NCBI GenBank assembly: GCA_047947115.1
Contig: CP170459.1
Location: 4,352,001 to 4,416,000, forward strand
Source of the DNA: Verrucomicrobiota bacterium
GTDB taxonomy: Bacteria > Verrucomicrobiota > Verrucomicrobiia > Limisphaerales > AAA164-E04
Reading direction: 5' to 3'
Length of the DNA stretch: 64,000 bases
Shown: positions 9,187 through 12,254 of the stretch, piece after piece
Position numbering within the stretch: position 1 is the stretch's first letter
Layout of the letters: every line of letters begins with the position of its first letter
Notes under the pieces: model-generated
What the model was told of the DNA's origin: nothing
What the model saw: only the letters and a program-made list of their open reading frames with translations
Databases searched by the model: none
Position numbers and translations under genes: made by a program

Positions 9187-9660
9187 TTAACGCGAAAGAA
9201 TCACCCTGAAGAAACCTTCGGTTGGACGGGGCAACACAAACTCTCCGTCGTTATGAGGGCCTTCGGCCAGTGGAATGAAAGTCTGAGGTTCATTCAACTG
9301 ATCGCTGTACTCAATCGTATAATCAAATCCGGTTTCCACTTGATAGCGGAAATGCAGCCCACCATCTTCCGTCAGATCCACAGCTAATTCCGGACGCCGA
9401 GCAGAGAAAAGTCCGACACCATAAATTCCCCCGCCAGACACTTCAGTCTTCAACCAACCATCCTCATATTGACTGTCAATCGATTGCCATTGATTGTCCA
9501 TCTCATCGTATTTGAACAAGTTCACCTGCTGATTCGATGGGATGAAATAGGAGAAGGACATGGAAGCAATCTGCTCATCCAGTGCGAAGGGTAATGACAA
9601 TTGAACCGGTTGTAAAAAATGTGGATCCTGGAGGTTTCCAACGCTTTGGTCCTCTCCCAT
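9187..9660 (-). pseudogene. Probable 3' remnant of a larger surface-protein gene (FYR-type C-terminal domain), abutting a repeat element
   Basis: The last ~157 aa look like a real extracellular beta protein (ending IEYSDQL...EGFFRVILSR) but have no signal peptide. The rest of the 248-aa ORF reads through the inverted-repeat element at 9673-9820. Confidence 0.55.
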
Positions 9661-9672
9661 ATAAATGTTTTT

Positions 9673-9820
9673 GGGGTCACGTCTCGACATTCTACATTTA
9701 GAGCACATTATTGTTATGTGCTCAGTGCTTACTCGGTTCCATTCTGAGAAAATCCCCCCCAAACATGATTGATAAAACTCCTGTTCCGCTTTGCATTGTC
9801 GAATGTCGAGACGTGACCCC
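9673..9820. mobile_element. MITE/REPIN-like non-autonomous element, copy 1 (148 bp)
   Basis: Perfect 20-bp terminal inverted repeat GGGGTCACGTCTCGACATTC / GAATGTCGAGACGTGACCCC; internal hairpin GAGCACAT-N7-ATGTGCTC; second copy at 10288. Confidence 0.75.
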
Positions 9821-10287
9821 AAAACATGTGGAAGGATATTCCAACAGACTCCCTCGTAATTGGTTGGGATTGAGTGCTCATGGGAAGTAGAGTGTTGCCA
9901 ATCTGTTATCTGCTGCGGTTCAAACAATTTCAATCTTTCATTCCAATTCCACCCTCACCAAAAATCGAATAATATACCGCTGCCATTCATAGGATATCTC
10001 TTAGCGGGTCTACGGCAAACTCAAACCGAATGGTTCGCAAATTATTCATTTTGAGGAGGCATTCCAATATTCGAACCAAACCTGCTTCTAGGCAGTCCAG
10101 GTGAAGCAGCAGTAAAGAAAGTATACAATTTCGTGTTTGGAATCCCTGACTTCTGCACAAGGCAGATTTCACGTTTGATACTCCAAATTGTATACTACTT
10201 GCCCATTTTCGAGCAAATTCGTGATAGTTCAGGAGGATTCAAACATCCGCATCCCTTTTGCATGCAAACACCTGAGGAGACGTGTTA

Positions 10288-10599
10288 GGGGTCACGTCTC
10301 GACATTCAACATTTAGAGCACATTAATGCTATGTGTTCAATGCTTGGTCGACTCCATTTTGTCGAAATCACCCTCCAAGAGCATGCATGATAAAACTTCT
10401 ACTTTGCTATTAAATGTTGAATGTCGATTCCGCTGCCCCCCCTAATTTTTACGGAACTGAGAAGTTGAAAAGCTATTGTTTAAAAACAACCTTCGAGAAT
10501 CGATTCTATGAGCGTTTTGAAGTGAGGTGAAGGTGATTTGCCCCCCTAAATTTTTGCGATTTTACTTTTTCAGCGGAATCGAATGTCGAGACGTGCCCC
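10288..10599. mobile_element. MITE/REPIN-like element, copy 2 (~150 bp once the nested insert is removed)
   Basis: Same left TIR as copy 1 and 67/80 identical bases over the first 80 nt (hand count). The right end is split by an insertion and resumes as TCGAGACGTGCCCC at 10586-10599. Confidence 0.75.
10424..10582. mobile_element. Nested 159-bp MITE-like insertion
   Basis: 12-bp TIR TCGATTCCGCTG / CAGCGGAATCGA, flanked by duplicated ATG (10421-10423 and 10583-10585); internal imperfect direct repeat GCCCCCC(C)TAA(A/T)TTTTT. Confidence 0.7.
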
Positions 10600-10874
10600 T
10601 TAAGACTCCCTGATATCGTTGAAGATTGGATCGCCCATTCAGGGCTCTGGTTTCACCACTCTCCTGCCCCAGCGCGTTGCACTAGGCTGGTATGGGGCAA
10701 CACTTTGGGCTTAAGGTCGTGTGGAAGGATATTACTCTTTGTGTCCTCGAGCCCTGTGGTTACCACCAGGACTCTCCTGAGATTAAGGAACCGGGTGATG
10801 TGGACCACACTTTTGCAAGTACGGCCACTCGATAATTCCATCCTGCATATCCTGTTCATCCAGTCTCAAAAAGC

Positions 10875-10906
10875 AAAACACCCCGAAGTTGAAACTCCGG
10901 GGTGTT
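10875..10906 (-). terminator. Intrinsic terminator of the ECF/anti-sigma/PDZ operon
   Basis: Stem AACACCCCG...CGGGGTGTT followed by a T-tract on the minus strand, just past the stop at 10929. Confidence 0.7.
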
Positions 10907-10928
10907 CAGTGAATTGGACGTAAGGGAA

Positions 10929-12254
10929 TCAGTGTTGGATGTCAGGGTTGATGATGATTTTTTCTTCGACGAGCACTTCGTGGGGCGTCGTGTTGTCGTG
11001 GTCTTTATCATCCACTTTCTTGTAGAAACGCATAAGGTGTTCGGTTTTGTTTTGCCCGGTCATTTCTTTGACTTTCTCACGAATCCCTTCGGGGAGTTCT
11101 TCAATGCTTTTTTCGGTTTCCAGATCTCCTTTGTAGATGGTGTCACCTTCGGGGTTCAGGACAACGAGGCGTTTTTTGCCGTCAATGTTTCGAAGGTTGT
11201 AGGTACCGGTATCGTCACTGAGGACCAGATTGCTGTTTTCCACGAAAAACAGACTGGTGTGCATGCCCTTTTTGAGTTCGGAGTTCTTTCCCTTGGCCAT
11301 GGCAGTGGCCAGGATACTTTTCTCGATGGCGTTCATTTTTTCTGCCATTTTACGATCGATCACCACGGGTTCGGCTCCGAGTTCAAATACCACATCTTCA
11401 TCATCGGATGCGGCATCGAAATGATAACTGAACTCATTTTTACCGGATCGATTGGTAATCACGGCTTTGGCGGACTGCTCTTCACCTCCTCGAATGTAGG
11501 TGAGTTTCACGCTTTCCCCTGATTTCTTGGTGCGTAACAATACGACGAGTTGTTTGGGGGTGATCAGTGTTTGATCGTCGAGTTTGGTGAGAATGTCATA
11601 CTGTTTAAGCCCTGCTTTGGCTGCGGGACTATTGAGCACGATATGTTCCACAGCCAACCCAATACCAGAAGCAAGGCCAAGTTGGGAAGCAACGAGTTCG
11701 GATACCTCGGAAACATGCACCCCCAACCAGGGGCCGGTGTTGAGTTGGGTAGATTTGTCGAGGGTATAAATGAAATCATTCCCATCTTCCGGTCTCCAAA
11801 GTAGTGTTTTGGATTCAACATTTTCCGTGTTCCCGGAATCAAAAGGCAGTTTCAACACGCGAGGCGGCTGTCCCGGAGTCCAACGCAATTCCTTTCCCTC
11901 GACGACTTGTGCGAGTTTGATTCCTTCCGGTAATTGGATCTCCTGCATGACTTCCGCGGCTTCCCCAACTTTCACCCTCCCCTGAGCCACAACTAATGCA
12001 TCATCTGACAAGGTGGCGAATCCCTCGGCCACAGGAAGCCCTGTGATCTCTTTCAGGTCTTGTATTTCTTTCACCCCATGTTCAGGTGCATCGGAATGAG
12101 TGATGACACCGGAAGCTATGAATTTCCAGTTGGCTCCATGAGGATCAATGGCGAAAGCCGGAATCCGGGATTTCGGTTCGTTTTCGGCGCTATGCAACAA
12201 CGGGGTCGCGATGGCAATGGCAACCAGAGCGGTTGCGACGTTTGTTTTCATCAT
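10929..12254 (-). CDS. Exported PDZ-domain protein without a recognisable protease domain
   Basis: Signal peptide MMKTNVATALVAIAIATPLLHSA; PDZ motif PWLGVHV...GLAVEHIVLNSPAAKAGLKQYDILTKLD; no trypsin GNSGG motif. Confidence 0.82.
   Translation of the reverse strand: MMKTNVATALVAIAIATPLLHSAENEPKSRIPAFAIDPHGANWKFIASGVITHSDAPEHGVKEIQDLKEITGLPVAEGFATLSDDALVVAQGRVKVGEAAEVMQEIQLPEGIKLAQVVEGKELRWTPGQPPRVLKLPFDSGNTENVESKTLLWRPEDGNDFIYTLDKSTQLNTGPWLGVHVSEVSELVASQLGLASGIGLAVEHIVLNSPAAKAGLKQYDILTKLDDQTLITPKQLVVLLRTKKSGESVKLTYIRGGEEQSAKAVITNRSGKNEFSYHFDAASDDEDVVFELGAEPVVIDRKMAEKMNAIEKSILATAMAKGKNSELKKGMHTSLFFVENSNLVLSDDTGTYNLRNIDGKKRLVVLNPEGDTIYKGDLETEKSIEELPEGIREKVKEMTGQNKTEHLMRFYKKVDDKDHDNTTPHEVLVEEKIIINPDIQH

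Follow-up and report, generated by a model that had tools for sequence, protein, structure and literature searches.

The question raised by this locus is why one of two similar small elements carries a second, shorter insert within its right arm, and what that insert is. The stretch of DNA analysed, here called the window, comprises 64,000 nt (CP170459.1 of assembly GCA_047947115.1, positions 4,352,001-4,416,000, forward strand), and its host genome is designated G000. The original prediction was that a 159-bp insert (10424-10582) with perfect 12-bp inverted ends, bordered by ATG at 10421-10423 and again at 10583-10585, represents a second mobile family that may target the first. The sequence is as described, and excision of the insert leaves a 150-bp copy 2 that is 79% identical to the 148-bp copy 1 (9673-9820). 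Of the two sets of boundaries that had been proposed, it is the alternative one, a 10-bp terminal inverted repeat with a 7-bp duplication (GAATGTC), that is correct. Related ends set the boundary at GATTC, and the two bases outside it are TC in just 35 of 129 such ends, taken from 92 transposase loci that include the best 80 of at least 323 metagenome loci (hereafter the best-80 set); the 12-bp ends with an ATG duplication were rejected on this ground. The features of the locus are collected in Table 1.

Table 1. Features of the nested elements (window coordinates; a dot marks a feature without strand)
Feature	Position	Strand	Remark
155-bp MITE, IS1182-type ends	10426..10580	.	66-79% identity to ten G018 copies
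Left terminal inverted repeat, 10-bp core	10426..10435	+	A-run next to the core in most relatives, absent here
Right terminal inverted repeat	10571..10580	-	
Target-site duplication, 7 bp, inner copy	10419..10425	+	GAATGTC
Target-site duplication, 7 bp, outer copy	10581..10587	+	GAATGTC
First C-run/T-run tract, subterminal	10436..10450	+	variable
Second C-run/T-run tract	10541..10555	+	variable between strains
Internal palindrome	10495..10507	.	like two decayed ends head to head
Outer element copy 2, inverted TIRtron arm pair and spacer	10288..10599	.	150 bp once the insert is removed
Left arm of copy 2, intact	10288..10314	+	fits TIRtron motif GGGG[AT][CG]A[CG]
Interrupted right arm, inner part	10412..10425	-	
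Interrupted right arm, outer part	10581..10600	-	one motif base fewer than copy 1
Outer element copy 1, 148 bp	9673..9820	.	both arms empty

The insert contains no ORF of 60 aa or more and is present once in G000. A 10-bp inverted repeat with a 7-bp duplication, spaced at 100-300 bp, occurs twice in the 6.08 Mb of this genome, so the pattern by itself is at about the level of chance; homologues with the same ends are what settle the status of the insert as an element. The insert also held up as a feature of the DNA and not of the assembly: both junctions are spanned by contigs from X3 and X4, each covering 10282-11000 with 9 differing letters, and from X10, covering 10282-10690 with 8. These runs stem from three studies that sampled marsh and estuary water. 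No empty allele or joint omitting the insert was found in 8 runs (X11 being without cover there), and a search of 7 congeneric genomes gave no orthologous site lacking the insert. Six other runs have A instead of G at position 10426, and because they share this base the copy in the window is probably old and inherited.

The two C-run/TAA/T-run direct repeats that had been pointed out within the insert do exist, but they are not conserved. Among the ten copies of the element in a second genome, that of a relative (G018), the tracts differ, and from strain to strain their runs change in length, which makes a functional repeat improbable. In a third genome, G020 (L003:1502-1581), we noted one half of the MITE alone, ending at the internal palindrome and lying between two arms at the usual offset, which may reflect either use of the internal end or a microhomology deletion. 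Elsewhere in the host genome (G000:C1:2338975-2339000) there is a short hairpin whose stem is the 10-bp MITE end, arranged tail to tail, possibly by chance.

To place the insert we searched for its relatives. Among 41 genomes, homologues of the MITE gave 9 matches in G018 and 1 in G020, and a search for the ends yielded a tenth copy in G018; each of the ten occupies a different locus, and all align with the window copy. The same end search recovered two full-size elements in G018, of 1,882 and 1,884 bp, and thus the autonomous IS with the same ends that had been proposed as a check on the prediction. IS1182 elements have a single ORF between inverted repeats, encoding a transposase with DUF772 and DDE_Tnp_1_6 domains and conserved acidic residues. 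The G018 transposase matches DUF772, DDE_Tnp_1_6 and DDE_Tnp_1 above the Pfam cut-offs and scores 265.3 bits against NCBIfam NF033551 (curated cut-off 270), the next family scoring 65 bits; the nearest annotated plasmid genes are named IS1182 and are 30-36% identical to it. D153, D359, E490 and E495 are invariant in 62 transposase sequences. The predicted model (pLDDT 89.4) comes nearest to Tn5 and piggyBac, with a best E of 1.3e-3 and thus none at E 0.001, and a sequence search found no solved structure for the transposase.

The MITE and the full-size elements of G018 and the metagenomes have their terminal 25-40 bases in common but not their interiors, and since sequence sharing is limited in this way, the link between them rests on the ends, the length of the duplication and the target. 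We are highly confident that the insert, which has no gene of its own, carries the ends of this IS1182 clade and follows the clade's targeting of arms, and its assignment to a second mobile family, as predicted, is borne out by the ten homologues. No matching transposase was found in G000, and because of its absence the window copy is an orphan in a genome that no longer encodes the enzyme.

Wider searches added little. A search pattern based on the window copy's left end had no match in G018, G020 or G021, because this copy lacks the A-run. A scan of genome contigs returned at least 121 stretches; five of those listed have arm context, three of them with the flanks of G018 loci, and the remaining stretches look like chance. 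When 401 genomes of the order were searched at the DNA level, the gain was just a different 169-bp element (G702) and a short unrelated match (G027), and no relatives were found in viral contigs. Six plasmid IS1182 elements form a separate branch, and the four with locatable ends, a small control, have other ends and no motif at 20 nt as judged by eye.

Most members of the clade (61 of 80) carry a second ORF, small, conserved and divergent, of about 68 aa inside the left end (for example L196:47-250, L201:47-253 and L211:359-562), which is absent from the two G018 copies and 17 others. One of three such proteins tested scored 22.9 bits against AbrB/MazE in Pfam, where the cut-off is 24.7, and a palindrome lies between the gene and the start of the transposase; the gene is likely a built-in repressor. 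We rejected it as a targeting factor, as the motif described below is found at 11 of 18 elements without the gene and at 30 of 48 with it.

What, then, is the outer element? G000 contains the 19-nt core of its arm 12 times when up to 3 mismatches are allowed. Two of the arms, at G000:775410 and 776528, flank a gene for a 349-aa HUH/Y1 protein with HYH and Y119 (Pfam Y1_Tnp, E 2.5e-11), and the final codons of this gene lie inside one arm. A C-terminal DnaA-like helix-turn-helix (Bac_DnaA_C) was matched at E 0.2 in G000 and 0.027 in G018, both below the cut-off. TIRtron arms have been described as terminal repeats with a published motif that flank a Y1 gene and occur also as gene-less dimers and singlets (PMC3733652; subclass 2.1 in bioRxiv 279083), and the arms here agree on each point: they fit the motif (the main arm matches GGGG[AT][CG]A[CG] exactly), flank a Y1 gene and form gene-less dimers or singlets. 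Classical REPs or REPINs were rejected, since the arm region folds at 0.0 kcal/mol, G000 has only 12 arms, and the REP_Tyr_transpos model gives 50 bits against a cut-off of 80. Thus, by their sequence, the two outer copies are TIRtron arm dimers and, because the arm by itself does not fold, not classical REPs. Where the original prediction drew an analogy with IS elements that target REPs, the target here is a TIRtron terminal repeat and not a palindromic REP.

Several features of the surroundings can be recorded here. The 3' half of the Y1 (TIRYT) gene is duplicated in tandem over 495 bp (G000:C1:774915-775410), and the duplication ends exactly at an arm. In the window, an open frame on the minus strand (9187-9933) runs through copy 1 into the apparent 3' end of a secreted-protein gene without a start. 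The segment between the doublets (9871-10281) has almost no run cover and the contigs of X3, X4 and X10 diverge to the left of 10282; apparently, the doublets flank a segment that varies.

We then examined the position of the insertions relative to the arms. The best-80 set consists of the best 80 of at least 323 metagenome loci, 3 loci from a further search and 9 found earlier (L177 was excluded). The inverted repeat alone served to locate ends, and three doubtful ones were dropped to leave 154, of which 129, from 81 loci, were distinct and had 30 nt of flank; the motif was scored as GGGG[AT]C with up to 1 mismatch. In G018, the motif lies 20-21 nt outside an end in 11 of 12 two-ended elements, the twelfth being in a decayed arm; by comparison, 10.6 Mb contain 60 matches to the main arm. 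A second arm family was used by two MITE copies. Across the best-80 set, it lies exactly 20 nt outside 49 of the 129 ends and at any other distance outside no more than 5, and NGGG[AT]C is exact in 44 ends, compared with a background of 0.002 per position in the farther flank. Motifs at about half of the ends are the expected level, because insertion into a single arm shows the motif on one side only. The 66 distinct two-ended elements of the set have the motif on one side (29), on both (7) or on neither (16), or have too short a flank (14); orientation relative to the motif is 20:9 among the 29, and of 61 ends without the motif, 28 have scores resembling those of an arm's inner part. The interrupted arm in the window itself is short of one motif base.

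The duplications place the cut to the base. Perfect duplications were found at 20 loci of the best-80 set (7 bp in 17, 6 bp in 3; L190, L220, L259 and L271 were set aside from this count), and at 17 of the 20 GGG(A/T)C starts exactly 13 bp before the duplication; the remaining three have another element end adjoining, a different palindrome or a decayed motif. Duplications in the clade are 6-8 bp, mostly 7, and differ in sequence between loci. The expectation that the flanks would always read GAATG|TCGAG failed, the 49 targeted ends of the best-80 set having 43 different 13-nt arm sequences; compared with the TIRtron motif, 14 of these 49 arms match exactly and 43 in a looser form. Judged from these sequences, what stays constant among the targets is the spacing from GGG(A/T)C. 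The trait is scattered over the clade tree, and as related elements are not independent, the case rests on the variety of sites and not on a p-value. Targeting of TIRtron arms across the IS1182-type clade is thus supported, and with it the predicted preference of the insert's family for the first family, at a base position that is fixed across the clade.

Some loci depart from the usual arrangement or extend it. L231, L232, L243 and L255 form a small, well-supported subclade at a GATCATC-type palindrome, two of them with GGGGTC at 15 nt and not 20, which is possibly a target switch. Six element ends (L196, L228, L235, L244, L265) lie 7 bp from another element end, reflecting repeated use of a site, circle junctions or collapsed assemblies. 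Orphan IS ends and MITEs of other sizes (56 and 169 bp) occur in arms at the same offset at L161, L163, L168 and L296 (G018) and at L172, L023 (G020), L018 (G021) and L184 (G702).

How might the position be chosen? The clade's DDE transposase likely moved the MITE in trans, and it likely reads the TIRtron terminal repeat directly as double-stranded DNA, a mechanism that we consider probable. It would recognize two features together: GGG(A/T)CA on the outer side and, around the cut, a weak dyad. With matrices built from 16 sequences and counted on G000 only, the motif part (9.0 bits) has 477 sites, the dyad part (8.6 bits) has 1,011 and both together have 14. Staggered attack on one arm would give the duplication seen in the window. 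If the two ends were instead joined to equivalent positions in a pair of inverted arms, whether simultaneously or through later intramolecular transposition or recombination, the interior would be deleted and arm-element-arm would remain. The elements with motifs on both sides (7 of 66, best-80 set) have lost the interior between two arms, although two-arm capture, adjacent deletion and inter-copy recombination would all give such a product. RNA-guided targeting was rejected, the mean longest match to the element's non-coding DNA being 6.3 for its own arm and 6.4 for other arms; Rfam gave nothing relevant in the window region or at 20 loci.

Motif and dyad are inherited together in the arms, and as a result the sequence statistics fit direct reading and recruitment by a partner protein alike. 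In such recruitment, the Y1 transposase (TIRYT), bound to its arm by a putative C-terminal helix-turn-helix, would draw in the IS1182 transpososome and so set the 13-bp offset. In the best-80 set the offset stays the same in 43 arm sequences that have the TIRtron motif as their main common feature, TIRYT genes were found in 10 of the 14 genomes that have the IS or MITE compared with 105 of 301 in a sample of the phylum, and there is a published analogy in ISAjo2, which inserts beside XerC sites (PMC10132070). This co-occurrence is, however, expected from target availability and confounded by kinship and genome size; a TIRYT gene adjoins just 8 of the 92 loci (best-80 set), and a single clade of transposases would need to bind a range of TIRYTs, those seen being 27-49% identical. 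The ISAjo2 group (IS1202 family) shares with the clade a DDE transposase without a known targeting partner, a fixed distance from another enzyme's site (here 13 bp at 17 of 20 loci in the best-80 set) and a short duplication, but it belongs to another transposase family, targets dif/pdif and, in the text available from PMC10132070, always has one orientation, whereas both are found here (20:9). Recruitment is the main rival, which we regard as unlikely, and direct reading of the arm is the preferred account.

Structure guidance of the IS1272 kind, in which the doublet arms would extrude a cruciform and the transposase would attack its stem, appears improbable. IS1272/TnSha1 elements have a transposase of the same family, inverted-repeat targets and replacement of the interior without duplication, a product identical to that seen here at 7 of 66 elements in the best-80 set and 4 of 12 in G018 (PMC5678879, PMC4923244), and the empty doublet of the window folds into a long stem of -39.7 kcal/mol. 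As described in the available parts of those papers, IS1272 targets are hairpins with little common primary sequence, attacked without duplication, whereas insertion in this clade mostly gives an ordinary duplication, usually of 7 bp within the range of 6-8, within one arm that does not fold, at a set distance from a shared motif. Replacement is not the rule, since the window copy and 20 relatives of the best-80 set have perfect duplications in targets that do not fold: none of 21 targets has z below -2, and the 40 nt around the target have a mean z of -0.13. A partner arm was found at 2 of the 20 loci. Both belong to the 8 whose inner DNA exceeds 1 kb, so that 6 of these 8 have none. A long duplication of the doublet interior was rejected, as 68 loci gave one one-sided case (L222) and no two-sided case.

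Less probable still is opportunism, whereby the IS would fill a nick or break made by TIRYT in the arm, or would land widely and survive in dispensable arms. Existing breaks are reported to take up IS elements without duplication (bioRxiv 2024.06.02.596822), and the arms are mostly intergenic, but clean 6-8-bp duplications suggest the IS's own staggered attack, and selection cannot produce a register of a single base or account for some 60 arms in 10.6 Mb holding 11 of 12 elements. An assembly artefact or a chance repeat can hardly be entertained, for although G000 has one copy of the insert and a second, chance-like match to the pattern, three runs from three studies bridge it and ten G018 homologues have the same ends.

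The remaining comparisons concern what is new. ISPsy8, ISPa11, ISPpu9, ISPpu10, ISRm19 and ISRm22 also break the repeat of another family at one position, but each is bound to the REP sequence of one genome, two of them at the palindrome axis (PMC1525189), whereas the clade here uses more than 40 different TIRtron arm sequences (best-80 set), which are not palindromic REPs. MITEPye1 of Paracoccus yeei is likewise a low-copy, intergenic MITE with IS1182-family ends, but it makes a 4-bp duplication, and targeting of another repeat is not reported in the available text (PMC11578231). Nor is targeting of the arms by an IS described in the portions available of PMC3733652 and bioRxiv 279083, the defining papers and the only literature on TIRYT/TIRtron that we found; a search by title and abstract opening, with most subscription journals outside its range, found no report of TIRtron arms as an IS1182 target. 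The component parts are thus of known kinds, while neither the class of target nor the rule of a fixed offset without a hairpin seems to have been described. Repeat-hunting IS elements and hairpin-attacking IS1182 elements were known already; what is added is a clade-wide, base-exact preference for TIRtron ends. The IS1272 work left the question of sequence, structure or partner protein at the level of models in the text available (PMC5678879, PMC4923244). In this clade there is a compact DDE enzyme whose target, at about 18 bits, is rare, with roughly a dozen sites per genome. TIRtrons are common (105 of 301 genomes in the phylum sample) and known mainly from genome surveys, and the insertions show which arm positions are constant across diverse TIRtrons.

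The insertions of the IS and MITE fall between host genes, which would suit the predicted safe haven for the IS, an idea that is at most half true. In G018, one MITE occupies an arm carrying the TIRYT stop codon and changes the end of the protein from LNVET to LNVDSAAKP, and full-size elements are found at TIRYT-flanking arms at L176 and L206; because of these cases, the relation of the IS to the TIRtron looks parasitic. A bolder reading, which we hold only tentatively and think doubtful, is that the whole IS1182 clade is a dedicated TIRtron parasite, steered by the bound Y1 protein or capturing two arms at once, and that it would generate arm-IS-arm hybrids that the Y1 enzyme could move. Such a hybrid, if real, would be an element common to DDE and HUH transposases. 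At L161 (G018), a host gene lies between two outward-facing IS ends. Finally, a 37-bp stretch of the window (10836-10872) has a second copy at G000:526176 and is matched, in that part alone, by contigs of several runs; it is perhaps a third small repeat.
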